Part shown: positions 31,478-64,000 of the stretch, one piece after another
How the letters are laid out: every line of letters starts with the position of its first letter
Position numbering within the stretch: the stretch's first letter is position 1
Source of the DNA: Escherichia coli
Lineage (GTDB): Bacteria > Pseudomonadota > Gammaproteobacteria > Enterobacterales > Enterobacteriaceae
NCBI RefSeq assembly: GCF_003334335.1
Contig: NZ_QOWQ01000001.1
Reading direction: 5' to 3' (one strand)
DNA length: 64,000 nucleotides
The notes under the pieces: model-generated
What the model saw: only the letters and a program-made list of their open reading frames with translations
What the model was told of the DNA's origin: nothing
Database searches by the model: none
Translations under genes and position numbers: made by a program

Positions 31478-31493
31478 AAGCAACCGTTTACGT
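31478..31493. promoter_or_regulatory. PurR-box-like palindrome in the uacT leader
   Basis: AAGCAACCGTTTACGT (minus strand ACGTAAACGGTTGCTT) matches ACGCAAACGTTTGCGT at 13/16, with the central CG kept. It lies between the candidate promoter and the uacT SD. Confidence 0.4.
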
Positions 31494-31530: not shown

Positions 31531-31641
31531 GTTTTTGCGAGGAAGGGGAGTTAGAGACAGGAATTGCGGAGGCAATCACATAATCGTGGTTAAACCACGA
31601 AAATGAGAAGAGAACCTGACAATGGAATTATCTGTAATTTT

Positions 31642-31653
31642 CTCATATTGATA
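31642..31653 (+). promoter_or_regulatory. Conserved 12-mer box CTCATATTGATA, copy 1 of 3
   Basis: Exact match to 56860-56871 (+) and 62677-62688 (-). The extended match to the 56852 copy is GTAATT(TT)CTCATATTGATAT. Confidence 0.4.
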
Positions 31654-31881
31654 TTTCATTAATCATTCTGGCATGTCGCACTCTCGCATTTAATCGTTTT
31701 TATCTGGATAGCGCTCTTTTGATCGGCAATGTTGAAATAATGAAAGCGGCATAGATTGAGGGGCAATAATTTGAACTCAGTCGCAAAATTATAATTAAAA
31801 CGGTCATGCTACCTAATATATGCCCGTTTATTGCATCGCGAAATTTGAGAAGACATAACTCATTAAATGAAAGGGATGCAA

Positions 31882-33801
31882 ATGAATAAGTTTATTGCTG
31901 CTGAAGCTGCGGAATGTATAGGCTGTCATGCTTGTGAAATTGCCTGTGCGGTGGCACACAATCAAGAAAACTGGCCGCTGAGTCACAGTGACTTTCGACC
32001 GCGTATCCACGTTGTAGGGAAAGGCCAGGCTGCGAATCCGGTGGCCTGCCATCACTGCAACAATGCCCCTTGCGTTACGGCTTGTCCGGTTAATGCTCTG
32101 ACTTTCCAGTCCGATAGCGTACAACTGGACGAGCAAAAATGTATTGGTTGTAAAAGATGCGCAATCGCTTGCCCCTTTGGCGTCGTTGAGATGGTCGATA
32201 CGATTGCGCAGAAATGCGACCTTTGTAACCAGCGCAGTTCCGGCACGCAAGCCTGTATTGAAGTTTGCCCAACACAGGCGTTACGACTGATGGACGATAA
32301 AGGGTTGCAGCAGATAAAGGTGGCCCGCCAGCGCAAAACGGCAGCAGGAAAAGCGTCATCAGACGCTCAGCCATCTCGCAGTGCAGCGTTGCTCCCCGTT
32401 AACTCGCGTAAAGGCGCAGATAAAATTTCAGCGAGTGAACGGAAAACCCACTTTGGCGAAATATATTGCGGGCTGGATCCACAACAAGCGACTTATGAGA
32501 GTGACCGCTGTGTTTATTGTGCCGAAAAAGCTAACTGCAACTGGCATTGCCCGCTGCATAACGCTATTCCGGATTACATCCGTCTGGTACAGGAAGGAAA
32601 GATTATTGAAGCGGCAGAACTTTGCCACCAGACCAGTTCCTTACCAGAAATTTGCGGCAGGGTATGTCCACAGGACCGTCTTTGTGAAGGCGCATGTACT
32701 TTGAAAGATCACTCGGGCGCAGTCTCTATCGGTAATCTGGAACGCTACATCACCGATACCGCGCTGGCGATGGGCTGGCGTCCCGATGTCAGCAAAGTTG
32801 TTCCCCGTAGCGAAAAAGTGGCGGTGATTGGCGCTGGGCCTGCAGGGTTAGGGTGTGCTGATATTCTGGCGCGCGCAGGAGTTCAGGTCGATGTCTTTGA
32901 TCGCCATCCAGAAATTGGCGGTATGCTGACTTTTGGCATTCCTCCTTTCAAACTCGATAAAACGGTATTAAGCCAGCGGCGAGAGATATTCACCGCAATG
33001 GGAATCGACTTTCATCTTAACTGTGAAATTGGCCGCGATATTACCTTTAGCGATTTAACTTCTGAATATGATGCAGTTTTCATCGGCGTGGGGACTTACG
33101 GGATGATGCGAGCAGATCTGCCGCATGAAGATGCGCCCGGTGTCATTCAGGCTCTACCGTTCCTGACTGCCCATACCCGCCAGCTCATGGGATTGCCGGA
33201 GTCTGAAGAGTATCCGCTGACGGACGTGGAAGGTAAGCGAGTCGTGGTATTGGGCGGTGGCGATACGACAATGGATTGTTTGCGGACTTCCATCCGCCTC
33301 AATGCCGCCAGCGTGACCTGCGCGTATCGTCGTGATGAAGTCAGTATGCCGGGCTCGCGCAAAGAGGTGGTTAATGCGCGCGAGGAAGGTGTCGAGTTTC
33401 AGTTCAATGTTCAACCGCAATATATCGCTTGTGACGAAGATGGGCGTTTAACTGCGGTGGGCCTGATTCGTACCGCCATGGGTGAGCCGGGGCCGGATGG
33501 TCGCCGTCGTCCTCGTCCGGTAGCGGGTTCAGAGTTTGAATTGCCCGCCGATGTTCTGATTATGGCCTTTGGTTTCCAGGCGCATGCCATGCCGTGGTTG
33601 CAGGGCAGCGGAATTAAACTCGATAAATGGGGCCTGATTCAAACCGGTGACGTCGGGTATTTACCTACCCAGACGCATCTGAAAAAAGTCTTTGCTGGTG
33701 GTGATGCAGTTCATGGCGCGGATCTGGTTGTCACTGCAATGGCCGCAGGAAGGCAGGCGGCGCGCGATATGTTAACTCTGTTTGATACGAAGGCATCGTG
33801 A
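31882..33801 (+). CDS. ygfT: Fused 4x[4Fe-4S] ferredoxin / GltD-like NAD(P)H flavin oxidoreductase (AegA paralogue)
   Basis: ORF 31867..33801 trimmed to [18 protein letters not shown] (639 aa). It has four CxxCxxCxxxCP-type motifs, then [13 protein letters not shown]...[15 protein letters not shown], then [14 protein letters not shown] and [13 protein letters not shown]. Confidence 0.92.
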
Positions 33802-43654: not shown

Positions 43655-46600
43655 TTACACCTCCACGCGGCCCAGCAGATAATGATGATGCTGGTGGACA
43701 TGGCTGATGATGCGGCACATATCGTTCAGCTCCGGTGGTACGTTGTTAAACTGACCTTTGCTGTCGATGTTTAACACCCAGCTTTGGTTATTCAGACGTA
43801 CTCGTACCCGGCAATCTTCCACAAGGAAGCCTGGGTTGCTGCTGTTATCAAAGTCTTGCGCCAGGCTGAAGACGGTGATTTTGTCTTTGTACGGTTTACC
43901 GTTCCACGGACAGAACTGAGCGCAGTTGCCGCATTCGTTACAGTAAGCGTCGAGGTGCAGCGTCTGGAAACGGTTCTGGAAGCCTGGGACCGCAATGGAG
44001 ACGTTGGCGCGGTTCGGGCAGACATCCACACACTTGCTGCAAACGTAGTTACATTCGAGGCAGCGAGCGGCTTCCTGGGCGACAAACGCGTCACGATCGT
44101 CACTGTTCACCAGCGTGATAGAGATATCGCCTTTACGTTGATAGATTTCCGCTGGATTGACGTTGTTCCAGTATTTATCGTTCTGGTGGGAACGGATATT
44201 TTCCCGACTAAGGATGGCATCGGTCGCCCGACGCGCGGTTCCGACAGCAGCGACAATGGAGGATGGTCCGCGCTGTACGTCGCCGATCATAAAGACGTCA
44301 GTCAGACGAGTTTCGCCATTATGGTCGACGTCTGGCCAGCCGTTTTTGTCCAGCGGCACGCCCATCGCATTCAGGGCTTCAGTATCCTGCTGTTCACCAA
44401 TGGCGGTGATCAGGCTGTCTACAAGCAGTGTTACTGTTTCATTGGTTTCAACCGGACGACGACGACCTTTCTCATCCGGTTCGCCAAGCGACATAACGCG
44501 CAAGGTTAAGGTGCCATCAGCATCGAAACGTTCCGGATTATTCAGGAAACGGAACTCTACGCCGTCGTGCAACGCTTCTTCATACTCTTCGCGCCATGCG
44601 GGCATCTCTTGTAGTGAACGACGGTAAACGATCGTTGCTTTTTCTACGCCTGGAACGCGTAACGCCGCACGAGCGCAGTCCATTGCGGTGTTACCCGCCC
44701 CGACAACGACCACATGTTTGCCCAGCTTGAGCGCTGTACCCTTGTTGTATTCACGCAGGAAGGGGAGTGATTTCCAGACATTTTGGTTGTCGCCCGCCAG
44801 TTTCACACCGCTATTTTTATCAGTGCCGGTGGCAATCAGAACATAGTGGAAGCCCTGATTTTTTAACTGCTCAATGGTTAAATCGGGTGAGCAGCCATAC
44901 TCAAATTTCACGCCGTGAGCGGCAACAAAATCGATATCGTGCTGAATTAACTCTGCAGGAATACGGAACTGAGGAATGATATTTTTCACCACGCCGCCCG
45001 CATTGGCTTCGCGTTCAAACAGCGTAACCGGATGGCCCGCTCTGGCAAGGAAGTAACCTGCTGCCAGACCCGCCGGACCTGCACCAATCACGGCAACCGG
45101 ATGGCGTGAACCAGAACCGGCTGGTTTGTGCCAGCGTTGCTTATATTCATCCCAACCTTTTTCCAGCGCGACTTTTTTCAGTTCGCGGATATTCAGCGCA
45201 CTGTCGTAATCCAGGCGGGTACAGTTGTATTGGCACTGGTGATCGCAAATATGACCGGTAATGGCGGGCAGAGCGTTGCGTTGGTAGATGAGTTCCAGCG
45301 CGTCGGCATAGCGGTGTTCGCCAAGCAGACGGATGTATTCCGGAATATCTTGCTTGATAGCGCAGGCAGTAACACAGGGGGCAACGTAGCAGTCGGTCAG
45401 CGGCAGGTCTTCTGCCACTTCAATACGCTCTTCTGGCTTCCAGTGTTTCTGGGTGTATTCCATGGTTAACGCATCTGCTGCCAGTCTGTTCAGTCGTTCG
45501 ACGTCAACATGGTCAAGTCCCCAGGCGTCGGAGCCTTCCAGCTCGCGCATGCAGGCACTTAAGCGCAGATAGCCGCCAGGTTTCAGCAGGTCGGTTGCCA
45601 TAGTAATAGGGCGAATACCTGTATCAAAAATATCGCGGATAGTCAGCTGACTGGCACCACCGGAATAAGAAATGGGCAGTTTGCCGTCAAAGGCGCGAGA
45701 GAGAACTGCTGCAACATTGATGGAGAGCGGGAACAGCGCACGGCCTGACATATACATCTCTTCACCAGGCAGTGCGCCTTTATTGTTGATGGTGCCGAGA
45801 GTGTTAGTCAGTTTTACGCCAAAGCCGAGTGATTTTTCTTTTGCCAGTGCCATCAGGCGTTCCAGCATTTCCAGTGCTTGCGTCAGCTTGAGGTCGTGAT
45901 CAAATGACTCTTCTTTTAAGCCTATGTAACCGAAACCGCAGACATCGAGGATCTCACGAACACGCGCGTACCCCAGTAAGGTCGGGTTAAGTTTCACAAA
46001 GGTGTTGAGCCCTTTTTCTTCCAGCATGTAGCGGCAAATGGCTTCGATTTCATGCGGAGGACAGCCGTGCATGGTGGAGAGGGTGACGCCATGCACCATA
46101 CTGGTGGGGATGCGAGCGGGTAAGGCTTGCAAGCTTTCGCGTTTTTCCTGCAATCCGTGGCGAGCTAAAAATGCGTCATCCTGGAGTAATTTATTCAGCG
46201 TATCGCGATATTGAGCGAATTTCGGATGGTCAGATGCGTCCATCATATTGTCGATGAACTGTTGCATCGGCGGTTGCTTAATACCTTCGAGGTTGTAACC
46301 GACGCTCATATTAAAGATGAACGATTTACCGGAATCAGAAGGCTGGAACATCGCTTCGAGAAGGTGCAGGGCAAACCAGGCTTTGAGGTATTCATCCCAG
46401 GCTTTAAGCAGGGTAAATTCGGTAGACCATTCGGTGTTAAAGCACTCGTCTTCGGCATCGATACAGGGCTTTTCCAGCTCCAGGCGGTCAAGAATTTGGA
46501 CGGTTTTTAGTTCGATGAAGCGTCCGCCAGTCAGCCAGGAAGTGACAATATTTTGCGCGAGCTGCGTGTGCGGGCCAGCGGCAGGGCCGACGGGAGTGGC

Positions 46601-46753
46601 ACAGGTTTCACCGAAGACGCTAACAGTTTTACCTTTTACAGGTGAGTAAAACTGTTGCTCGGGAATACCAAAGATTGAGCGTTGTTGTTGGTATTCATCA
46701 AATATGCGCGTCAAAAGTTCCTCAAACGGAATGGGACGCATAATATCCCCCAT
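43655..46753 (-). CDS. ygfK: Large flavo-iron-sulfur oxidoreductase: barrel domain + GltD-like FeS/FAD/NAD(P)H + 2x[4Fe-4S]. Historically annotated as a putative selenate reductase subunit
   Basis: 1032-aa ORF. Motifs are VKLTNTLG / SYSGGAS (FMN-barrel-like), [67 protein letters not shown] and CNECGNCAQFCP. Confidence 0.92.
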   Translation of the reverse strand: MGDIMRPIPFEELLTRIFDEYQQQRSIFGIPEQQFYSPVKGKTVSVFGETCATPVGPAAGPHTQLAQNIVTSWLTGGRFIELKTVQILDRLELEKPCIDAEDECFNTEWSTEFTLLKAWDEYLKAWFALHLLEAMFQPSDSGKSFIFNMSVGYNLEGIKQPPMQQFIDNMMDASDHPKFAQYRDTLNKLLQDDAFLARHGLQEKRESLQALPARIPTSMVHGVTLSTMHGCPPHEIEAICRYMLEEKGLNTFVKLNPTLLGYARVREILDVCGFGYIGLKEESFDHDLKLTQALEMLERLMALAKEKSLGFGVKLTNTLGTINNKGALPGEEMYMSGRALFPLSINVAAVLSRAFDGKLPISYSGGASQLTIRDIFDTGIRPITMATDLLKPGGYLRLSACMRELEGSDAWGLDHVDVERLNRLAADALTMEYTQKHWKPEERIEVAEDLPLTDCYVAPCVTACAIKQDIPEYIRLLGEHRYADALELIYQRNALPAITGHICDHQCQYNCTRLDYDSALNIRELKKVALEKGWDEYKQRWHKPAGSGSRHPVAVIGAGPAGLAAGYFLARAGHPVTLFEREANAGGVVKNIIPQFRIPAELIQHDIDFVAAHGVKFEYGCSPDLTIEQLKNQGFHYVLIATGTDKNSGVKLAGDNQNVWKSLPFLREYNKGTALKLGKHVVVVGAGNTAMDCARAALRVPGVEKATIVYRRSLQEMPAWREEYEEALHDGVEFRFLNNPERFDADGTLTLRVMSLGEPDEKGRRRPVETNETVTLLVDSLITAIGEQQDTEALNAMGVPLDKNGWPDVDHNGETRLTDVFMIGDVQRGPSSIVAAVGTARRATDAILSRENIRSHQNDKYWNNVNPAEIYQRKGDISITLVNSDDRDAFVAQEAARCLECNYVCSKCVDVCPNRANVSIAVPGFQNRFQTLHLDAYCNECGNCAQFCPWNGKPYKDKITVFSLAQDFDNSSNPGFLVEDCRVRVRLNNQSWVLNIDSKGQFNNVPPELNDMCRIISHVHQHHHYLLGRVEV

Positions 46754-46825: not shown

Positions 46826-46841
46826 AGCAACAATCGCACCA
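46826..46841 (-). promoter_or_regulatory. Candidate sigma54 (-24/-12) promoter reading into ygfK-ssnA-ygfM-xdhD
   Basis: The minus strand reads GTGGTGC-GATTG-TTGCT. GG-N10-GC spacing is exact and the -12 TTGCT is perfect. The -12 GC is about 75 nt upstream of the ygfK ATG. Confidence 0.45.
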
Positions 46842-46904
46842 CTCTTGCCAGGTTTGGCGGGAAATATAAAAAAATGTGAGGCGGCTCGAAACTTAAGGGC
46901 TTTT

Positions 46905-46920
46905 TGTGAATGAACTCACA
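46905..46920. promoter_or_regulatory. Perfect CRP-consensus palindrome TGTGA-N6-TCACA upstream of ygfK
   Basis: TGTGAATGAACTCACA was read directly. It is centred about 70 bp upstream of the -24 element, with an A-tract (AAATATAAAAAAA, 46862-46874) in between. Confidence 0.5.
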
Positions 46921-47051
46921 GGTGCTAAATGAGAATTAAAATCACTCCTGAAAATTATTATTGCCAGCCCATTTATCAATTTTTCTCTTTTCTCAAAATC
47001 AGTGATTCCTTATCATTATGATAATGAGTGCCGGAAGGATTAAATATTTGA

Positions 47052-47755: not shown

Positions 47756-48526
47756 GTGAAAAGTATAGTTGACCCATCGGCATTAGTCATTGATTTAGGT
47801 GCGCAGAAACGTCCCACTGTGATTTCTGTTGTTGGTGCTGGGGGGAAAACCAGCTTGCTTTTTTGGCTGGCAGAACTGCTCCAGGCTAGCGGCAGGCGTG
47901 TGTTAATCACGACGACGACACATATGTTTATGCCAACGTCTCACTGGCCCGTGGTTTTCTGTCGTGATCCCGCCATGCTTCCTCATGCGTCTCTTACATC
48001 CCCCATTTCATTTTGTTTTCACAGCTGGAAAGCGAACCAGGGAAAAGTGCAGGGATTTACGCCAGAAGCGATTGATGCACTGGTGCAACGACCAGAGTGT
48101 GACGTAATTCTCATTGAAGCAGATGGCTCGCGTGGAATGCCGTTAAAAGCGCCTGATGAGCACGAACCTTGCATACCCAAAAGCAGTTGCTGCGTGATTG
48201 CTGTGATGGGAGGACATACTTTGGGCGCGAAAGTGAGCACAGAAAATGTCCATCGCTGGTCGCAGTTTGCTGATATTACCGGGTTAACACCTGATGCAAC
48301 CTTGCAACTGAGCGATCTCGTTGCGCTGGTTCGCCACCCTCAGGGGGCGTTTAAAAACGTACCGCAAGGTTGTCGGCGAGTCTGGTTCATTAACCGTTTT
48401 TCTCAATGTGAGAATGCGATTGCACAAAGCGAGCTCCTTCAACCGCTGCAACAACACGACGTAGAGGCAATCTGGCTGGGCGATATACAAGAACATCCTG
48501 CAATCGCGCGCAGATTTGTGAATTAG
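47756..48526 (+). CDS. yqeC: P-loop accessory protein YqeC (family linked to selenium-dependent Mo hydroxylase maturation)
   Basis: 256-aa ORF with a GTG start and Walker A VVGAGGKTSLL. Confidence 0.85.
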   Translation: MKSIVDPSALVIDLGAQKRPTVISVVGAGGKTSLLFWLAELLQASGRRVLITTTTHMFMPTSHWPVVFCRDPAMLPHASLTSPISFCFHSWKANQGKVQGFTPEAIDALVQRPECDVILIEADGSRGMPLKAPDEHEPCIPKSSCCVIAVMGGHTLGAKVSTENVHRWSQFADITGLTPDATLQLSDLVALVRHPQGAFKNVPQGCRRVWFINRFSQCENAIAQSELLQPLQQHDVEAIWLGDIQEHPAIARRFVN

Positions 48527-55360: not shown

Positions 55361-56551
55361 TTATTTCACGCGTTCTTGCGCTTCTTTCAGCAGTTGCTCG
55401 AGCAGTGCACCTGGTTTGGCGTATTTACGGGACAGGATCATCGCGGCGATGATATAAGGCTTCCAGCTGGCTTCTTTGTAGGTAGCGATACGGTATTTTT
55501 CGAATACGCCTTCAGTCACTTCACCTTCTTTACAGGATACGCCGCTGATATCAGCTGGCAGGCAGTGCATGTACAGGGCTTCGCCATCACGGGTCAGTTC
55601 CATCATCTCTTCAGTACAATGCCAGTCTTTGTGTTGCGCGTTCTGTGCCAGACACTGTTTTTCCAGTGCTTTTAAGCCTTCGTGATCGTTCGCACGCAGC
55701 AATTCAGTACGCTCTTCCATCACTTTGTAAGGTGCCCATGACTTCGGATAAACGATGTCTGCGTCTTTGAAGGCTTCTTCCATGCTGGTGACCTGACGGA
55801 AGCTACCACCGGAGGCTTTAGCATTGTTTTTCGCCACTTCAACCACATCCGGGATCAGGTCGTAGCCTTCCGGATGGGCCAGGGTGACATCCATACCGAA
55901 GCGAGTCATCAGACCGATGATGCCTTGTGGTACAGAGAGCGGTTTGCCATAGCTTGGAGAGTAGGCCCAGGTCATGGCGATTTTTTTACCTTTCAGGTTT
56001 TCCAGTGAACCAAAGTGTTCACGTAACCACGCGAGGTCAGCCATTGACTGAGTCGGGTGGTCAATATCGCATTGCAGGTTCACTAAAGCCGGACGCTGTG
56101 GCAGTACACCCTGCTTGTAACCGTCATCAAGTGCAGCGCCAACTTCACGCATATAGGCGTTGCCTGCGCCCAGATACATATCGTCGCGAATACCAATAGC
56201 GTCGGCGCAGAAGGAGATCATATTGGCGGTTTCACGCACGGTTTCGCCGTGAGCGATTTGTGATTTGCCTTCGTCGAGATCTTGTTGTGCAAGGCCGAGC
56301 AGGTTAAGCGCGGAAGCATAAGAGAAGCGGGTACGGGTGGAGTTGTCGCGGAATACGGAAATACCTAATCCACTATTAAAGACTTTGGTTGAGATGTTTT
56401 CAGCACGCAGTGCTTTTAATGCTGCGGCAACGTCCAGTACTTGTTTCAGTTCATCTGGCGTCTGTTCCCACGTTAACAAAAAATCTTTCTCGTGAAGGTG
56501 AGAGGTCAGCGAATTGATATCCTTAATCAGCTCATTAACAGTTTTCATCAT
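55361..56551 (-). CDS. ygeW: Transcarbamylase-family protein whose physiological substrate I cannot assign
   Basis: 396-aa ORF with carbamoyl-phosphate motifs STRTR (NSTRTRFS), HPTQ (IDHPTQSMADL) and HCLP (MHCLPA). Confidence 0.92.
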   Translation of the reverse strand: MMKTVNELIKDINSLTSHLHEKDFLLTWEQTPDELKQVLDVAAALKALRAENISTKVFNSGLGISVFRDNSTRTRFSYASALNLLGLAQQDLDEGKSQIAHGETVRETANMISFCADAIGIRDDMYLGAGNAYMREVGAALDDGYKQGVLPQRPALVNLQCDIDHPTQSMADLAWLREHFGSLENLKGKKIAMTWAYSPSYGKPLSVPQGIIGLMTRFGMDVTLAHPEGYDLIPDVVEVAKNNAKASGGSFRQVTSMEEAFKDADIVYPKSWAPYKVMEERTELLRANDHEGLKALEKQCLAQNAQHKDWHCTEEMMELTRDGEALYMHCLPADISGVSCKEGEVTEGVFEKYRIATYKEASWKPYIIAAMILSRKYAKPGALLEQLLKEAQERVK

Positions 56552-56641: not shown

Positions 56642-56657
56642 AACAATAAGTGTGCCA
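56642..56657 (-). promoter_or_regulatory. Candidate sigma54 (-24/-12) promoter reading into ygeW-dpaL-ygeY-hyuA-yqeA
   Basis: The minus strand reads CTGGCAC-ACTTA-TTGTT. The -24 element is perfect and spacing is exact, but the -12 element is GT instead of GC. The -12 element is about 95 nt upstream of the ygeW ATG. Confidence 0.4.
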
Positions 56658-56700
56658 GAATTATCCGCGCGGCTGCAAAAGACTAATTTGACGGATAATG

Positions 56701-56716
56701 TGTGGGGTTGATCACA
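56701..56716. promoter_or_regulatory. CRP-like palindrome TGTGG-N6-TCACA upstream of the ygeW promoter candidate
   Basis: TGTGGGGTTGATCACA was read directly; 9/10 half-site positions match. Confidence 0.4.
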
Positions 56717-56748: not shown

Positions 56749-56764
56749 ACGAAAACGTTTGGCT
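56749..56764. promoter_or_regulatory. PurR-box-like palindrome in the ygeW/ygeV divergent region
   Basis: ACGAAAACGTTTGGCT matches ACGCAAACGTTTGCGT at 13/16; the core AAACGTTT is intact. Confidence 0.4.
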
Positions 56765-56859
56765 TTTTTTATCGCGTTATTTATTTGCTGCTAAGTATCA
56801 GAAATAAGATAAAGGGGCAGGCTATCTCTCTTCAGTTTGATAAACTCACCGCCGTAATT

Positions 56860-56871
56860 CTCATATTGATA
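56860..56871 (+). promoter_or_regulatory. Conserved 12-mer box CTCATATTGATA, copy 2 of 3
   Basis: Exact match to 31642-31653 and 62677-62688. It is followed by a TGATAT...TGATATC direct repeat. Confidence 0.4.
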
Positions 56872-57026
56872 TAGAAATGTGATATCTCTTCCATAATTTC
56901 ATTAGAAAATGATAAAAATCTTATGTTTTTATCAAAGCCAATTTCGCCTGAGTTAATATCATCATGATCTGTGAACCATCAACGTCTTCAATGATCGACT
57001 TTTAAGTAAGTCTGGAAGGTAAAGCT

Positions 57027-58805
57027 ATGGAGCTTGCTACTACGCAGTCAGTATTGATGCAAATTCAACCGACAATTCAGCGTTTTGCCAGAATGCTTGC
57101 CAGCGTTTTGCAGCTTGAGGTTGAGATCGTTGATGAAAACTTGTGTCGCGTTGCCGGAACGGGCGCGTATGGGAAGTTTCTTGGTCGCCAGTTGAGCGGC
57201 AACTCACGCCTGCTCCGCCACGTCCTGGAAACGAAAACTGAAAAAGTTGTGACACAGTCTCGCTTCGATCCCCTTTGCGAAGGTTGCGATAGTAAAGAAA
57301 ATTGCCGCGAAAAAGCATTTCTGGGTACGCCTGTCATTTTACAGGATCGTTGTGTTGGGGTGATAAGTTTGATTGCCGTTACCCACGAGCAACAAGAGCA
57401 TATCAGTGATAATTTACGCGAATTTTCTGATTATGTTCGCCATATATCCACCATTTTTGTTTCGAAACTTCTGGAGGATCAGGGGCCAGGAGATAACATC
57501 AGTAAAATATTTGCGACCATGATCGATAATATGGATCAGGGCGTATTAGTTGTAGATGATGAAAATCGGGTTCAGTTTGTTAATCAGACTGCCTTAAAAA
57601 CACTTGGTGTTGTGCAAAATAATATTATTGGGAAACCTATCCGTTTCAGACCATTAACATTTGAGAGTAATTTTACCCATGGACATATGCAGCATATTGT
57701 TTCATGGGACGATAAAAGTGAATTAATCATTGGTCAATTGCATAACATTCAGGGCCGACAATTATTTTTAATGGCGTTTCACCAATCGCATACCAGTTTT
57801 TCTGTAGCAAATGCACCTGATGAACCGCATATTGAACAATTGGTTGGCGAGTGCCGTGTTATGCGGCAATTAAAACGACTCATTAGCCGTATTGCACCCA
57901 GCCCATCCAGCGTTATGGTGGTTGGTGAAAGCGGCACGGGTAAAGAAGTCGTCGCCCGTGCAATCCATAAGTTGAGCGGAAGACGGAATAAACCCTTTAT
58001 TGCTATCAACTGTGCCGCGATTCCGGAGCAGCTTCTGGAGAGCGAACTGTTCGGTTATGTTAAAGGTGCATTTACTGGCGCTTCTGCCAACGGTAAAACA
58101 GGGTTGATTCAGGCGGCGAATACGGGCACGCTGTTTCTCGATGAAATAGGTGATATGCCATTAATGTTGCAGGCTAAATTACTGCGCGCTATTGAGGCAC
58201 GTGAAATTCTGCCGATTGGTGCCAGTAGCCCAATACAAGTCGACATTCGCATCATTTCTGCAACTAATCAGAATTTGGCCCAGTTCATTGCCGAAGGTAA
58301 ATTCCGCGAAGATCTCTTCTACCGACTTAATGTTATCCCGATAACTCTGCCACCGCTGCGTGAACGTCAGGAAGATATTGAACTATTGGTGCATTACTTT
58401 TTACATCTGCATACCCGTCGTCTGGGATCGGTTTATCCTGGCATTGCTCCCGATGTCGTCGAAATATTGCGTAAGCATCGTTGGCCCGGAAACCTGCGCG
58501 AGTTAAGCAATTTGATGGAATATCTGGTTAACGTGGTTCCTTCAGGTGAAGTTATCGACAGCACGCTATTGCCGCCAAATCTGCTGAATAATGGCACAAC
58601 GGAGCAAAGTGATGTAACAGAGGTCAGTGAGGCGCACCTGTCACTCGATGATGCGGGCGGCACGGCGCTGGAGGAGATGGAAAAGCAAATGATCCGCGAG
58701 GCGCTTTCACGTCATAACAGCAAGAAGCAAGTTGCTGATGAACTGGGCATCGGCATTGCTACGCTCTATCGCAAGATTAAGAAATATGAGTTGTTAAACA
58801 CATAA
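57027..58805 (+). CDS. ygeV: Sigma54-dependent transcriptional activator (bacterial enhancer-binding protein)
   Basis: 592-aa ORF with Walker A GESGTGKE, sigma54-contact loop GAFTGA, Fis-type HTH VADELGIGIATLYRKIKKY and an N-terminal sensor + PAS-like region. Confidence 0.95.
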   Translation: MELATTQSVLMQIQPTIQRFARMLASVLQLEVEIVDENLCRVAGTGAYGKFLGRQLSGNSRLLRHVLETKTEKVVTQSRFDPLCEGCDSKENCREKAFLGTPVILQDRCVGVISLIAVTHEQQEHISDNLREFSDYVRHISTIFVSKLLEDQGPGDNISKIFATMIDNMDQGVLVVDDENRVQFVNQTALKTLGVVQNNIIGKPIRFRPLTFESNFTHGHMQHIVSWDDKSELIIGQLHNIQGRQLFLMAFHQSHTSFSVANAPDEPHIEQLVGECRVMRQLKRLISRIAPSPSSVMVVGESGTGKEVVARAIHKLSGRRNKPFIAINCAAIPEQLLESELFGYVKGAFTGASANGKTGLIQAANTGTLFLDEIGDMPLMLQAKLLRAIEAREILPIGASSPIQVDIRIISATNQNLAQFIAEGKFREDLFYRLNVIPITLPPLRERQEDIELLVHYFLHLHTRRLGSVYPGIAPDVVEILRKHRWPGNLRELSNLMEYLVNVVPSGEVIDSTLLPPNLLNNGTTEQSDVTEVSEAHLSLDDAGGTALEEMEKQMIREALSRHNSKKQVADELGIGIATLYRKIKKYELLNT

Positions 58806-58844: not shown

Positions 58845-59324
58845 TTACTTCGTTTTCTCGCAATCCAGAACTGTATTTACAATCATCTGATACCCCGTGC
58901 AGCGACAAAGATTTCCCGCCAGTCCGCGACGAATTTCCGTAATGGTTAATGGCTTCTCGCGTGGTTTCGCCAGCATTGCCGTGGTAGCCATAATCAGGCC
59001 AGGCGTACAAAACCCGCACTGCACTGCGCCGGATTTCGCATAAGCCTGCTGAACATGAGAAAGTTTTCCGCCTTTCGCTTCACCTTCCAGCGTGCGGATC
59101 TCTTTTCCTTCAGCCCAGGCGGCAAGGTATAAGCAACTGTCTATTGCTGTGCCGTCGACCAACACCGTACAGGCACCACATTCACCCACGCAGCACCCTT
59201 GTTTGACACTTAGCAGTCCTTGTTCGCGGAGTAATTCCGAGAGCGGCGTGCCTGGTGCGGCGTGAAGCTGAAAAGGCATCCCGTTAATGGTGCATTCGAT
59301 GGTAATTGTTTCGCTGTGATTCAT
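58845..59324 (-). CDS. xdhC: Xanthine dehydrogenase [2Fe-2S] subunit
   Basis: 159-aa ORF with both cluster motifs CCVGECGAC...C and CGFCTPG...CRCTGY. Confidence 0.95.
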
Positions 59325-60209: not shown

Positions 60210-62468
60210 TCAAATCAATCCTGCCAGATGGAACTCTTCATATAACCGTTTTGGCGTCAGCGGCAGTGTATTGATTGCAACACCGGTAGCCATCTTCACC
60301 GCGTTACGAATAGCAGCGGCAACAGGAATTATTGGTGGCTCACCCAGTGACTTATGTCCGTATGCGGATTGCGGCTCATTGATTTCGACGAACGCGCTTT
60401 CCAGTTGTGGCAGATCCGGCATGGTCGGCATTTTGTAATCCAGCAGATTGGGGTTACGGACCACGCCGCTTTTAGCATCGATGATCATCTCTTCAAATAG
60501 CGCCCAGCCAATGCCCATTCCCATTCCGCCGTGTACCTGACCTTCTGCCAGCAGTGGATTAAGAATATGCCCTGAATCATGAACGTTGAGGATGCGGTTG
60601 ATGGTGACTTTGCACAGCGCAATATCGACCGTCAGATCAACAAAGGTACAGCCAAACGCCGGTGGGTTAGTGGTGGTTTTGATGGAGCTTTCAGCAGAGA
60701 GCTGCCCGCCGCGTTCAGGGTGGTAGAAAGCGTCCATCGCCAAATCTTTTAACGACATTAACGGCTCTTCCGGTCGTTCAACCAGCACGATATGGCCTTT
60801 TATCAGGGTCAGATTCATCGCTGACTGATGTAGCATGACTGCGGCGTGAGCGATGATTTTCTCTTTTAATAATAGTGCCGCACTGCGCAGCGCAGGCGCG
60901 GCAACATAGCTCTGGCGTGAGGCAAATGCGCCGGGATCGAACGGCGTAACGTCGGTATCTTGAGTTGAAATAACGCGAACGTCGCTGACCGGAACCCCCA
61001 CGGTTTCTGCCACCATTTGCGAGAAGACGGTGTCGGCACCCTGACCGATTTCCGTCGCGCCGCTTTGCACGTTGATGGTTCCATCCTGATTCATCAGAAG
61101 GCGCGCGCCTGCTATTTCTACGCCGACAGGCCAGGTGTTAGAGGTGTAGCTAAAACAGGCGACGCCAACGCCGCGGCGCAAATTGCCTTGCTGGTTCTGG
61201 CATTCTGCACGGCGTTTTTCCCATTCAAAGATTTTCCGGCCTTTTTCAAGACACTCCGGCAACCCTGCGCTGTAAATACGTTTGCCCGTGAGCGGATTAG
61301 CATCTCCTTCGCGGGCGGCGTTGCGTAAACGAATTTCAACAGGATCAATACCTAACGCTGTCGCGGCGTCATCAAGCATAGACTCAACGGCAAATACGAC
61401 TTGTGGCGCGCCATAACCACGCATCGCACCAGCCGAGGGGAGGTTGGTATAGCAGGTCTTTGAACTGTAAGCGTAGGCACAACGAGGATAAAGGTAAGCG
61501 ACTTTATTCCCCCCCGCAGAAGCGATGGAGTGCCCGTGAGATGCATAAGCGCCGGTGTTAGACAGAACATCCAGACTATAACCTTTCAATGTTCCGTCGC
61601 GGTTCACGCCCATTTGCCCGTCAATGGTAAAAGCGTGGCGGGTACGGGTTGCGAGGAAACACTCTTCACGGCTAAGGGAAACTTTCACCGGAATGCCGCC
61701 AAGCTTGCTGGTCAGGAATGCCGCCATTGGCTCTTCCAGTACATCCTGTTTATTACCAAAACCGCCACCGACAAATGGTTTGATGACTCGTACGCATGAC
61801 CAGGGAATATCCAGCGCCTGACCAACCACGCGGCGAACAATGTGCGGGATCTGGGTGCTGGAAACGATGGTAATTCGCGAGTCATCCTCCATCCACGCCA
61901 GCGATGTTACGCTTTCCATGTGACAATGTTGAATAACGGGGGTCTGATAGTGCCCCTGTACCTGGTAGTCGGCGGCATCGATTGTTTGTTGGACATTACC
62001 CGTCGACATCGTGCTTTGTTTCAGTAAATTGCCACCGTTATGGATTGGTGCAGCGTCTTCTGCCAGCGCCGCTTCTGGCGTGGTGATAACGGGTAATTCT
62101 TGCCACTCAATGCTGACCAATTGCGCCGCTTTTTCTGCCGTGAGTTCATCGCGGGCCACGACGATGGCAACGGCGTCACCATGATGACGAACATGGCGAG
62201 TTAGCAGTGCGCGATCGGCGGTATCGCGCTTGTTTTCGTCAAGTGTCCAGGCATGCCCAGCTGTAGCGAATGGAATATCAGGCACATCTTCCCAGGTAAA
62301 AATCGCCAGTACGCCCGGCAAACTTCTGGCTTGTTCATCATTAATACTTACGGCATAACCATGTGCGATAGGGCTACGTACATATTTCGCATAACACATG
62401 CCCGCCATAACATAATCGTCAGTATATCGTGCCCGCCCGGTGACCTTAGCAATGGCATCGACGCGCAT
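60210..62468 (-). CDS. xdhA: Xanthine dehydrogenase molybdenum-binding subunit
   Basis: ORF 60210..62507. ATG 62468 (MRVDAIAKVTGRARYTDDY) gives the remembered 752 aa. The upstream ATG 62507 has the better SD (see findings). Confidence 0.92.
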   Translation of the reverse strand: MRVDAIAKVTGRARYTDDYVMAGMCYAKYVRSPIAHGYAVSINDEQARSLPGVLAIFTWEDVPDIPFATAGHAWTLDENKRDTADRALLTRHVRHHGDAVAIVVARDELTAEKAAQLVSIEWQELPVITTPEAALAEDAAPIHNGGNLLKQSTMSTGNVQQTIDAADYQVQGHYQTPVIQHCHMESVTSLAWMEDDSRITIVSSTQIPHIVRRVVGQALDIPWSCVRVIKPFVGGGFGNKQDVLEEPMAAFLTSKLGGIPVKVSLSREECFLATRTRHAFTIDGQMGVNRDGTLKGYSLDVLSNTGAYASHGHSIASAGGNKVAYLYPRCAYAYSSKTCYTNLPSAGAMRGYGAPQVVFAVESMLDDAATALGIDPVEIRLRNAAREGDANPLTGKRIYSAGLPECLEKGRKIFEWEKRRAECQNQQGNLRRGVGVACFSYTSNTWPVGVEIAGARLLMNQDGTINVQSGATEIGQGADTVFSQMVAETVGVPVSDVRVISTQDTDVTPFDPGAFASRQSYVAAPALRSAALLLKEKIIAHAAVMLHQSAMNLTLIKGHIVLVERPEEPLMSLKDLAMDAFYHPERGGQLSAESSIKTTTNPPAFGCTFVDLTVDIALCKVTINRILNVHDSGHILNPLLAEGQVHGGMGMGIGWALFEEMIIDAKSGVVRNPNLLDYKMPTMPDLPQLESAFVEINEPQSAYGHKSLGEPPIIPVAAAIRNAVKMATGVAINTLPLTPKRLYEEFHLAGLI

Positions 62469-62562
62469 GCATGATTCACCCGTAGCGGTTGCTTCCCGCG
62501 CTTCCATAGAAATCCCCTCGATTTGAACATTTGGTTCTTATGGCAAAGATTTAGTCTAAGCA

Positions 62563-62578
62563 GGCAAGATTTACGCCA
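62563..62578 (-). promoter_or_regulatory. Candidate sigma54 (-24/-12) promoter reading into xdhABC
   Basis: The minus strand reads CTGGCGT-AAATC-TTGCC. GG-N10-GC spacing is exact and TGGC/TTGC are conserved. The -12 GC is about 55 nt (ATG 62507) or 95 nt (ATG 62468) upstream of the start. Confidence 0.4.
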
Positions 62579-62676
62579 GAAACGACGATAAGCGTTAGGG
62601 GAGGTAGGAAGTGTGATGACGTTAAAAAAACACAGATATGATACGAAACAGGACTCTGAATAGGGGCAGTGATACG

Positions 62677-62688
62677 TATCAATATGAG
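62677..62688 (-). promoter_or_regulatory. Conserved 12-mer box CTCATATTGATA, copy 3 of 3 (read on the minus strand)
   Basis: The plus strand reads TATCAATATGAG. It overlaps the perfect 12-bp palindrome TGATACGTATCA (62670-62681) and is centred about 105 bp upstream of the -24 element of the xdhA candidate promoter. Confidence 0.4.
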
Positions 62689-62921
62689 TGGCGATAAAAT
62701 CAATGTGATAAATTGGGATTATTACGCATCAGGATGGGAAATAGGGTAAAAAGTCAGGAAGTTCGATACCTCTACAGCGAATATTTTGCTGATGATACTT
62801 CCCTTTGCCAAATGAAATTAACCTCTTTCTCTATTACCACGTTTTTCCAGAAGCAAGAGATTGGGTATCAAGAGGCTGGCTGCTATGATAAGGCGTCTTG
62901 TTTTTTAAGCGAGGAAAGATT

Positions 62922-63677
62922 TTGAGTGCGGGACGCCTGAATAAAAAATCTCTGGGTATCGTGATGTTGTTATCGGTTGGACTGCTTTTGGCGGGCTGTT
63001 CGGGTAGCAAATCATCCGATACAGGAACGTATTCCGGCTCCGTTTACACCGTGAAACGGGGGGATACGCTATATCGTATTTCGCGCACCACGGGAACCAG
63101 CGTAAAAGAACTGGCGCGACTGAACGGCATTTCCCCCCCTTACACCATTGAAGTTGGTCAGAAACTAAAACTGGGTGGGGCGAAAAGTAGCAGTATTACA
63201 CGTAAATCAACCGCCAAATCAACGACCAAAACCGCATCGGTTACACCGTCATCAGCGGTACCGAAATCATCCTGGCCGCCAGTAGGGCAACGTTGTTGGT
63301 TATGGCCAACGACAGGGAAAGTTATCATGCCGTATTCGACAGCAGATGGCGGCAATAAAGGGATTGATATCTCAGCTCCACGGGGTACACCTATTTACGC
63401 CGCGGGTGCAGGAAAGGTGGTGTATGTGGGCAACCAGCTGCGTGGCTACGGTAATCTCATCATGATTAAACACAGTGAAGATTACATTACGGCTTACGCC
63501 CATAATGACACGATGCTGGTAAATAATGGGCAAAGCGTGAAGGCTGGGCAAAAAATCGCCACTATGGGGAGCACGGATGCGGCATCTGTTCGCCTGCATT
63601 TCCAGATTCGTTACCGTGCAACGGCAATTGATCCGCTACGTTACTTGCCGCCTCAGGGCAGCAAGCCAAAATGCTGA
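62922..63677 (+). CDS. ygeR: Outer-membrane lipoprotein with LysM and a degenerate LytM (M23) domain
   Basis: TTG start at 62922 after GAGGAAAG, 251 aa. Lipobox LLAGC. LysM YTVKRGDTLYRISRTTGTSVKELARLNG. The M23 metal ligands are degenerate (NKGIDI instead of HxGxD; RLHF instead of HxH). Confidence 0.9.
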   Translation: MSAGRLNKKSLGIVMLLSVGLLLAGCSGSKSSDTGTYSGSVYTVKRGDTLYRISRTTGTSVKELARLNGISPPYTIEVGQKLKLGGAKSSSITRKSTAKSTTKTASVTPSSAVPKSSWPPVGQRCWLWPTTGKVIMPYSTADGGNKGIDISAPRGTPIYAAGAGKVVYVGNQLRGYGNLIMIKHSEDYITAYAHNDTMLVNNGQSVKAGQKIATMGSTDAASVRLHFQIRYRATAIDPLRYLPPQGSKPKC

Positions 63678-63710
63678 TGGCGAATTAATCAGCAGTCAGC
63701 AGCGTGGCAC

Positions 63711-63738
63711 TTGCTAAGGAGAGCGTAAGGTTTATAAT
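63711..63738 (+). promoter_or_regulatory. Sigma70 promoter of glyU
   Basis: TTGCTA + 16 nt + TATAAT followed by a GC-rich discriminator (GCCTTACGC). It lies about 18 nt upstream of the mature tRNA 5' end. Confidence 0.6.
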
Positions 63739-63755
63739 GCCTTACGCATCTCGAA

Positions 63756-63829
63756 GCGGGCGTAGTTCAATGGTAGAACGAGAGCTTCCCAAGCTCTATA
63801 CGAGGGTTCGATTCCCTTCGCCCGCTCCA
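63756..63829 (+). tRNA. glyU: tRNA-Gly (anticodon CCC)
   Basis: GCGGGCGTAGTTCAATGGTAGAACGAGAGCTTCCCAAGCTCTATACGAGGGTTCGATTCCCTTCGCCCGCTCCA. It has a 7-bp acceptor stem, anticodon loop CTTCCCAAG, a GTTCGATTC T-loop and an encoded CCA. Confidence 0.95.
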
Positions 63830-64000
63830 ATTTATCTTCGCCGTAATACTTCCCCATTTTGTTGTAAATAAAAAGCGTTTACGCAATGCAATCCTTTTGT
63901 AACAACCCAGGTAAAACACCTTATTTTCAAGTTGTTAAATAAGTGGTTATCTACGCTTTTAACAAACGATTGATGGAATATTTTATGAAAGGGAAATCTG

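Follow-up and report, generated by a model that had tools for sequence, protein, structure and literature searches.

Putative enhancer dyads and a conserved CRP-like element upstream of the sigma-54 promoter of xdhABC in Escherichia coli

Introduction

The DNA upstream of xdhA raises the question of where the activator of the xdhABC operon binds and what else sits between that site and the promoter. The operon belongs to the xdh-yge-ygf cluster, the E. coli version of a gut-bacterial pathway for the anaerobic removal of uric acid, and the cluster is being engineered in probiotic strains against gout. The sigma-54 holoenzyme waits at its promoters as a closed complex; because of this, an ATP-dependent activator would be required at xdhABC. 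Transcription of xdhABC by sigma-54 is textbook-level database knowledge, to which nothing is added here. The dyads and the fixed element at -67.5 described below are concrete, mutable targets for locating the activator's binding site and the other occupants of these promoters, and the dyad motif can be used to predict the regulon in other enterobacteria.

Materials and methods

A single XdhA scan of species-representative genomes yielded 47 loci, from which 38 usable orthologous regions were taken, representing Escherichia, Citrobacter, Pseudocitrobacter, Kluyvera, Atlantibacter, Trabulsiella, Buttiauxella, Yokenella, Pluralibacter, Klebsiella indica, Hafnia, and Enterobacillus. Sites upstream of xdhA, those of other species together with those of E. 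coli, were the sole input of a symmetrised position weight matrix (PWM) for the dyad. The IHF consensus used in scanning was WATCAANNNNTTR.

Results and discussion

Layout of the cluster and the start of xdhA

The right end of the window, the 64,000-nucleotide stretch of E. coli DNA analysed here, carries the E. coli xdhABC-ygeV-ygeWXY...ygfT purine and uric-acid cluster, as identified from the layout of open reading frames, annotated E. coli records, and tblastn; relative to K-12, the cluster is reverse-complemented. On the minus strand, xdhA (60210-62507; 2298 nt in the PGAP annotation, 765 amino acids from the ATG at 62507) is followed on its 3' side by xdhB and xdhC, the latter ending at 58845. 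Further along the same strand lie ygeW (55361-56551), from which the order runs ygeW-ygeX-ygeY-hyuA-yqeA and so on, ygfK (43655-46753), and uacT (29998 to about 31447). The plus strand carries ygeV (uacR/isrR; 57027-58805), encoding a sigma-54 enhancer-binding protein and presumed activator, together with actS (ygeR; from 62922) and ygfT (31882-33801, from the annotated ATG at 31882; the mechanically called reading frame begins at 31867).

The span 62508-62921, which a first-pass annotation had delimited as the xdhA upstream region, coincides exactly with the xdhA-actS(ygeR) intergenic region of the PGAP annotation. The region was found in 5412 of 5426 complete E. coli genomes and is 96-100% identical within the species. 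A Shine-Dalgarno sequence (GAGGGGA, 62519..62513, minus strand) and the ATG at 62507..62505 were kept in all close orthologs, and at the position of the ATG annotated as the xdhA start in K-12 (62468) several genera have CTG, TTG, or a codon that is not a start. From this conservation, the true start of xdhA is likely the ATG at 62507, giving a protein of 765 amino acids. An Rfam scan of 62300-64000 for non-coding RNA returned a tRNA-Gly, a sub-threshold tpke11 match, and nothing else, and a repeat scan of the intergenic region found short pairs at chance level and nothing more.

The sigma-54 promoter of xdhABC

A sigma-54-type promoter had been proposed on the minus strand on account of its exact GG-N10-GC spacing. 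The spacing is indeed exact (GG at 62577-62576, GC at 62565-62564), and the element is best written as CTGGCGTAAATCTTGCC at 62579..62563, one base longer than the span 62563-62578 first assigned to it. Its core, TGGCGT-AAATC-TTGCC at 62578..62563, fits the TGGCAC-N5-TTGCW-like form. The pattern TGGC-N7-TTGC alone proves nothing, with four occurrences in the 64-kb window against 4.4 expected; the weight comes from position, orientation, invariance among the 38 regions, and published ChIP-seq. In all 38 orthologous loci, TGGCG-N6-TTGC lies 54-100 nt 5' of the xdhA ATG, and in an alignment of these regions the TGGCG and TTGC columns are invariant, set in flanking sequence that could not be aligned.

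Examination of published sigma-54 ChIP data, one of the checks suggested with the original proposal, bears the promoter out. Peak OS29 of Bonocora et al. (2015) carries the exact 17-mer found upstream of xdhA, with a fold above threshold of 11, and the site is flagged 'C', for experimentally confirmed in EcoCyc (PMC4591121). The same table gives sigma-54 sites for ygeW (CTGGCACACTTATTGTT), ygfK (GTGGTGCGATTGTTGCT), and ygfT (TATGCCCGTTTATTGCA) (PMC4591121). Zhao et al. (2010) included the same xdhA sequence among sigma-54-responsive genes (PMC2831329), and Reitzer & Schneider (2001), as credited by Lamoureux et al. (2023), had placed sigma-54 promoters upstream of xdhABC and ygeWXY (PMC10602906). 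The xdhABC promoter is thus already known and catalogued, an ordinary member of the sigma-54 promoter class.

By the rule of the ChIP-seq study, which puts the start 19 bp 3' of the motif centre (PMC4591121), transcription is predicted to begin at 62552 on the minus strand, leaving a 5' untranslated region of 45 nt before the ATG at 62507. The published distance of 84 bp between the transcription start and the K-12 start codon (62468) reproduces position 62552 (PMC4591121). By the published binding data, RNA polymerase carrying sigma-54 sits on CTGGCGTAAATCTTGCC (62579..62563), a sequence that does not vary among the enterobacterial genera; transcription would start near 62552, with translation from the conserved ATG at 62507.

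Binding of sigma-54 might instead be unproductive, with xdhABC transcribed from a sigma-70 promoter. Bonocora et al. regarded some sigma-54 sites as biological noise, and their RNA-seq did not report xdhA expression as dependent on sigma-54 (PMC4591121), the activator being inactive in standard media. A single weak sigma-70-like match was present at 62811..62783; however, about 230 nt separate it from the predicted start further downstream, and its number does not exceed chance (one match against 0.8 expected). Sigma-70 promoters and terminators were likewise at chance level. The invariance of the -24/-12 element across genera, its conserved enhancer at fixed phase, and the listing of xdhA as sigma-54-responsive by Zhao et al. 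(PMC2831329) also speak against a sigma-70 promoter as the source of xdhABC transcripts, which we consider very improbable.

A conserved, probable two-site enhancer

Upstream of the promoter, the first-pass annotation had singled out a conserved 12-mer, CTCATATTGATA, which reads directly from the sequence at 62688..62677 on the minus strand. The box is real, conserved, and above chance expectation, but a second conserved dyad 21 bp upstream of it had been missed. The 12-mer is contained in dyad B (ACTCATATTGATA, 62689..62677, minus strand), centred at -131; dyad A (TATCACATTGATT, 62710..62698, minus strand) is centred at -152. Both fit the 13-bp palindrome TATCA-N3-TGATA, and they lie about two helical turns apart.

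Conservation of the pair extends across the orthologs. Dyad A follows the consensus TATCAyAwTGA and is nearly invariant in the 38 regions, and dyad B follows [C/A/G]TCA-www-TGATA, with TCA-N3-TGA(T)A kept in 37 of 38. Spacing is conserved to a similar degree: in 37 of 38 orthologs the two dyads are 19-22 bp apart and their distance to TGGC is fixed within 3 bp, the dyad centres falling 104-107 nt (B) and 124-127 nt (A) from the T of TGGC. Three dyads are present in Hafnia, at -126, -146, and -166 counted from TGGC, an array about 21 bp further upstream; because this shift amounts to about two helical turns, the phase is kept. About 47 nt separate dyad B from the next conserved block, and no alignment column in this interval exceeds 70% identity. 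Nor do the dyads follow actS: they remain beside xdhA in loci with another upstream neighbour, as in the checked loci of Kluyvera, Trabulsiella, Buttiauxella, Yokenella, Hafnia, and Enterobacillus, in which actS is absent upstream.

Within the window, the 12-mer occurs in three exact copies, each in a regulatory region of this cluster. When as many as two mismatches were allowed, 12 matches were found against 4.0 expected, a number reached in none of 100 shuffled sequences, and TATCA-N3-TGATA with at most one mismatch occurs seven times against 1.2 expected. The two dyads have the geometry of a bacterial enhancer, lying within about 80-250 bp upstream of a -24/-12 element. On conservation and placement, the 12-mer appears to be the promoter-proximal half of a conserved two-site enhancer.

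Overlapping the 12-mer is a perfect 12-nt palindrome, TGATACGTATCA, at 62670-62681, noted in the first-pass annotation; on one reading it would be the activator site, with a nearby A7 tract as an intrinsic bend or IHF site. The palindrome is present as described, at a plausible distance from the promoter, and it is conserved within E. coli proper. However, only its TGATA(C) arm (62677-62681) is conserved more widely, because this arm is also the right arm of dyad B. The palindrome's other, right arm is specific to E. coli: it has already gone in E. ruysiae, where the sequence is TGATACACTGCC, and in E. albertii, where it is TGATACGCTCTC, and all other genera lack it, whereas the adjacent box is kept. 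Perfect 12-nt palindromes are moreover at chance frequency in the window (16 against 16.3 in shuffles). On conservation and chance frequency we rejected the palindrome as the activator site, and its symmetry appears to be largely coincidence.

The dyad at other promoters and in other genera

The PWM built from xdhA-upstream sites was used to search the whole window. Its best match (22.8; 47009-47025) lies between mocA and ygfK, and the next two (19.6 each) lie between ygeV and ygeW (56857-56873) and between uacT and ygfT (31639-31655). The three best matches thus all fall in the regulatory regions of ygfK, ygeW, and ygfT, which make up about 1.7% of the 64-kb window, and all exceed the maximum of 17.6 obtained in 30 shuffled windows. 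Dyad A, itself a member of the training set of the matrix, was the sixth-best match in the window. Each of the three regions holds a published sigma-54 ChIP-seq site (PMC4591121).

At ygeW, the dyad TATCAATATGAGA (in the ygeW sense; 56859..56871, minus strand) lies upstream of the sigma-54 promoter at 56658..56642, which corresponds to ChIP-seq site OS30, and a second conserved dyad, TATCAAACTGAAG, occupies 56830-56842. Across 28 orthologous regions between ygeV and ygeW, conservation extends to the promoter and to both dyads (TATCAATATGAGA and TATCAAACTGA); the dyads are spaced 29 bp apart, which departs from the value of about 21 bp at xdhA. At ygfK, a perfect dyad, TATCATAATGATA (47011..47023, minus strand), lies upstream of the sigma-54 promoter at 46842..46826 (OS31). 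At ygfT, the dyad TCTCATATTGATA (31641..31653, plus strand) is an exact copy of the 12-mer and lies upstream of the sigma-54 site at 31819..31835 (OS32).

These three promoters resemble that of xdhA in having a sigma-54-bound -24/-12 element (OS30-OS32; PMC4591121) and one or more upstream TATCA-N3-TGATA dyads, in having a CRP-like site between enhancer and promoter, and in belonging to the same co-expression module. They differ in the distance of the enhancer, which is closer at xdhA (-131/-152) than at ygeW, ygfK, and ygfT (about -182 to -234). The xdhA promoter also differs in that its two dyads, 21 bp apart, form an outward-perfect composite palindrome. Recurrence of the dyad motif at all four intergenic sigma-54 promoters is not in the literature examined.

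The association of dyad and promoter holds in other genera. Kluyvera is without the ygeV...ssnA segment, and there the 3' side of xdhC carries a dyad, TTTATCATTATCATAATGAGAGA, and a ygfK-type sigma-54 motif, followed by ygfM-xdhD. Nine 22-kb loci from seven genera gave 27 PWM matches with a score of 13.5 or more; all but the one at L006:9146, hence 26 of the 27, have a sigma-54-type motif downstream of them. A PWM match inside yqeC (48399-48415) in the E. coli window was rejected as an enhancer; it lies downstream, not upstream, of the published yqeC-internal sigma-54 start.

A CRP-like element at -67.5

The A7/T7 tract, at 62624-62630, was noted in the first-pass annotation next to the remark that a DNA bend usually lies between activator site and promoter. 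The tract is there, but it is not a free-standing bend: it supplies the T-rich portion of a conserved block, TTTTTTTAACGTCATCACA (62630..62612, minus strand), and forms the degenerate half of a conserved CRP-like element. The window holds 15 such A7/T7 runs, and most orthologs have a T-run. Across the orthologs the block reads TTTTTTAA-n-G-n-CATCACA-n-TT; A62623, T62616, A62614, and C62613 are invariant in all 38 regions, and conservation is 85% or higher at C62615, at A62612, and at the TT that follows. In 36 of 38 regions, the distance from the first base of TCAC to TGGC is 39-40 nt.

The block fits A-N6-TCACAnTT. The corresponding site, TTTTA-N6-TCACA (62627..62612, minus strand; centre -67.5), reads TTTTA-ACGTCA-TCACA in E. 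coli and agrees with TGTGA-N6-TCACA at 8 of 10 positions, a grade of match (up to two mismatches in 10) that occurs 0.53 times per kb in the window. Its right half and the flanking TT are conserved, and its left half keeps the A alone. Similar sites recur at the sister promoters: at ygfK a CRP-like site is also centred at -67.5, with a perfect TGTGAGTTCATTCACA at -97.5; at ygfT the centre is -68.5, the start being taken as 31846; and at ygeW a conserved TGTGATCAACCCCACA is centred at -77.5. The ygfK-type promoters of Kluyvera carry TTAGA-N6-TCACA at -67.5. A genomic SELEX survey of CRP listed ygfK, ygeV<>ygeW, and ygfT<>ygfU, and xdhA was absent; the xdhA site, with one good half-site, is weaker than those of its sister promoters.

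Other proteins were considered for the block. Scanning 62576-62700 with the IHF consensus WATCAANNNNTTR gave one match with two mismatches, TATCATATCTGTG at 62643..62631, which is not conserved, and in the conserved block itself the TT of ATCAC-A-n-TT lies two bases too close for this consensus; IHF was rejected as its explanation. FNR and PurR readings of the block were rejected by eye against consensus sequences: the invariant final C of TCAC fits the TCACA of CRP and not the ATCAA of FNR, and the AACGTC core is not conserved. These observations, with the chance frequency of the palindrome and the loss of its arm beyond E. coli, leave the combination of a palindromic activator site with an intrinsic or IHF-induced bend hardly credible, even with the persistence of a T-run in most orthologs in its favour.

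CRP is the leading candidate for a predicted site at -67.5. The element most likely binds a protein of the CRP family or another bending protein, which would aid formation of the loop and tie expression to carbon status. A CRP-like element fixed at -67.5 is not in the literature examined.

YgeV as the presumed activator

As first proposed, ygeV is the sole sigma-54 activator gene in the window and is convergent on xdhC (end 58845). The protein has the domains expected of its class: a PAS domain (residues 162-205), Sigma54_activat (PF00158; residues 272-439, E = 8e-71), AAA_lid_14, and HTH_8 (PF02954; residues 548-587, E = 1e-13). The GAFTGA motif is at residue 347, the C-terminal helix-turn-helix is of Fis type, and Pfam detected no receiver domain.

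Expression data connect the gene to the cluster. A single co-expression module named for YgeV, the 'YgeV iModulon', contains xdhABC together with ygeWXY, ygfK-ssnA-ygfM-xdhD, and ygfT-uacT, and ygfT expression is down in a ygeV mutant (PMC10602906). Two other genes of the iModulon, ybiY and rcsB, are candidates for the full dyad regulon. According to papers citing Iwadate & Kato (2019), ygeV is needed for anaerobic urate consumption; the same work is cited for the name uacR, for urate regulator, and the gene has also been called IsrR. Earlier papers proposed YgeV (UacR/IsrR) as activator of the xdhA promoter. In the literature examined we found no published YgeV binding site or footprint, and neither YgeV binding to the dyads nor loss of xdhA expression upon mutation of ygeV; in Reg-Seq, which used massively parallel reporters, promoters of the YgeV iModulon gave no consistent footprints. 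The link between YgeV and xdhABC is a standing working hypothesis in the literature, plausible and backed by indirect evidence.

We assigned the dyads to YgeV because its gene is adjacent, because a sigma-54 promoter cannot work without an activator, and because of co-regulation. On this assignment the dyads would be the sites of YgeV (UacR/IsrR), the only enhancer-binding protein of the cluster. Its dimers, bound to dyads A and B on one helical face, would assemble the active AAA+ ATPase ring, which would contact the closed complex at -24/-12 by DNA looping, with a protein-induced bend at about -67.5.

The dyads could alternatively be operators of a regulator whose gene lies outside the cluster, either a repressor or a global binder of AT-rich sites, with YgeV binding elsewhere. 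The motif is AT-rich and loosely recalls the GATAAT/ATTATC hexamers of the Fur box, though its invariant bases, TCA and TGA, are not the Fur hexamer positions. Four species of Kluyvera, as well as Hafnia and Enterobacillus, keep the xdhA promoter and its dyads and have neither ygeV nor another sigma-54 activator gene within 10 kb of xdhA. This is the main caveat to the YgeV assignment and, like the want of a published footprint, would suit such a regulator. Against it, nearly all of the dyads have a sigma-54 motif 105-235 bp downstream, at phase-preserving spacing, an enhancer geometry for which a repressor would have no need, and all four sigma-54 promoters need some activator. YgeV is also, to our knowledge, alone among the sigma-54 activators of E. 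coli in having no assigned target motif. We regard an outside regulator as unlikely.

The reading that we prefer, on comparative grounds, is that the intergenic region probably combines the xdhABC sigma-54 promoter with enhancer dyads, presumably bound by YgeV, and the element at -67.5. A broader proposal seems to us evenly balanced between right and wrong: that the TATCA-N3-TGATA pair is the recognition element of YgeV/UacR, and that its regulon shares a three-part design of dyads, an element of CRP-family type at about -67.5, and a -24/-12 promoter, a CRP-like bend taking the place of IHF. If true, this design would be a sequence-level definition of the anaerobic uric-acid degradation regulon in gut Enterobacteriaceae. 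The dyad motif and the CRP-like element are refinements of a known kind of system, a modest anatomical detail.

Comparison with known sigma-54 systems

At glnAp2, activated by NtrC, a closed complex forms on GG-N10-GC, and two dyad sites, located over 100 bp upstream and facing the same side of the helix, act by looping. The xdhA region shares the GG-N10-GC element and the two upstream dyads, and the closed complex and the looping would be shared as well. The NtrC dyad, TGCACC-N5-GGTGCA, is unlike the dyads of xdhA. The activators also differ, YgeV having a PAS-containing N-terminus and no receiver domain; because of this architecture, YgeV is presumably controlled by a ligand and not by phosphorylation. 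The prpBCDE operon, activated by PrpR, is likewise a catabolic sigma-54 operon with an adjacent activator gene and is under cAMP-CRP control, with a documented IHF site. In contrast, the conserved element between enhancer and promoter at xdhA resembles a predicted CRP half-site and not an IHF site.

Possible further regulatory inputs at the purine cluster

Two boxes resembling the PurR operator were observed in the window, as compared to 0.48 expected (3 mismatches to the operator consensus ACGCAAACGTTTGCGT). One, located between the ygeW enhancer and promoter (56749-56764), has the form GCCAAACGTTTTCGT and is conserved between genera; the second is found immediately upstream of uacT (31478-31493). 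These boxes suggest PurR input into purine catabolism. Sigma-54 promoters with CRP sites are unusual. The ygeW sigma-54 promoter has a conserved putative CRP site, TGTGATCAACCCCACA (56701-56716), centered at -77.5, and the ygfK promoter has a perfect putative site, TGTGAGTTCATTCACA (46905-46920), centered at -97.5. In published CRP SELEX data, both regions are listed.

Conserved elements adjoining ygeV (56900-56975) resemble a sigma-70 promoter of ygeV itself, with a putative -10 element of TAATAT or TAGTAT and a putative -35 element, TTATCA, inside the inverted repeat TGATAAAAA-N7-TTTTTATCA. An additional site resembling the TATCA-N3-TGATA dyad, the presumed YgeV enhancer, was located at 56955-56971 (PWM score 12.2). 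Together, the conserved elements and the dyad-like site hint at autoregulation.

A strong dyad-like match, TTTCTCAATGTGAGAAT (48399-48415), scored 16.8 as compared to a maximum of 17.6 in shuffled windows. It is located within yqeC, about 160 bp before yqeB. The published sigma-54 promoter inside yqeC, which drives yqeB, lies upstream of the match, placing the match within the long 5' UTR. This match may reflect chance or may be a downstream enhancer.

Shortened clusters in related genera

In Kluyvera species the cluster is shortened: ygfM-xdhD-xanQ-guaD-ghxQ come immediately after xdhABC, and the segment from ygeV to ssnA is absent (orthologous loci L011, L012, L013, and L025). In front of ygfM, three of these four loci have kept a sigma-54 promoter together with a ygfK-type enhancer and the -67.5 element (~13660-14200); L013, the remaining locus examined, showed no motif at that position. 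In Hafnia and Enterobacillus, xdhABC stands by itself and has the same promoter design.

Insertions of ~130 bp with terminal inverted repeats were observed in the ygeV-ygeW intergenic region of one Citrobacter and one Buttiauxella (L010, ~8260-8420; L022, ~16000-16150). The Buttiauxella insertion carries CCCCAGGAGCTTA...TAAGTGACTGGGG and is similar to an ERIC-type repeat. Both insertions left the dyads and promoter undisrupted.

The xdhA start and neighboring features

The K-12 database places the xdhA start at the ATG at 62468 (minus strand; 752 aa). As a start codon it is not conserved: Pseudocitrobacter, Trabulsiella, Buttiauxella, and Hafnia have CTG, TTG, or another codon at this position. 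By contrast, an ATG further upstream, at 62507 (minus strand), is conserved, is preceded by the Shine-Dalgarno sequence GAGGGGA, and is the start annotated by PGAP (765 aa).

At the xdhA promoter, a direct repeat, TAAATCTTGCC / TAAATCTTTGCC, occupies 62541-62573 (minus strand), with a distance of 20 nt between its copies. One of them, the first, overlaps the -12 element; the second, located at the predicted transcription start, is only partially conserved (TTGCCA or TTGGCA). The neighboring actS (ygeR) has TTG as its start codon, at 62922, and its product carries a lipoprotein signal with an LAGC end. Downstream of actS is a tRNA (63756-63826; Rfam, 71.6 bits), assigned as tRNA-Gly by position.
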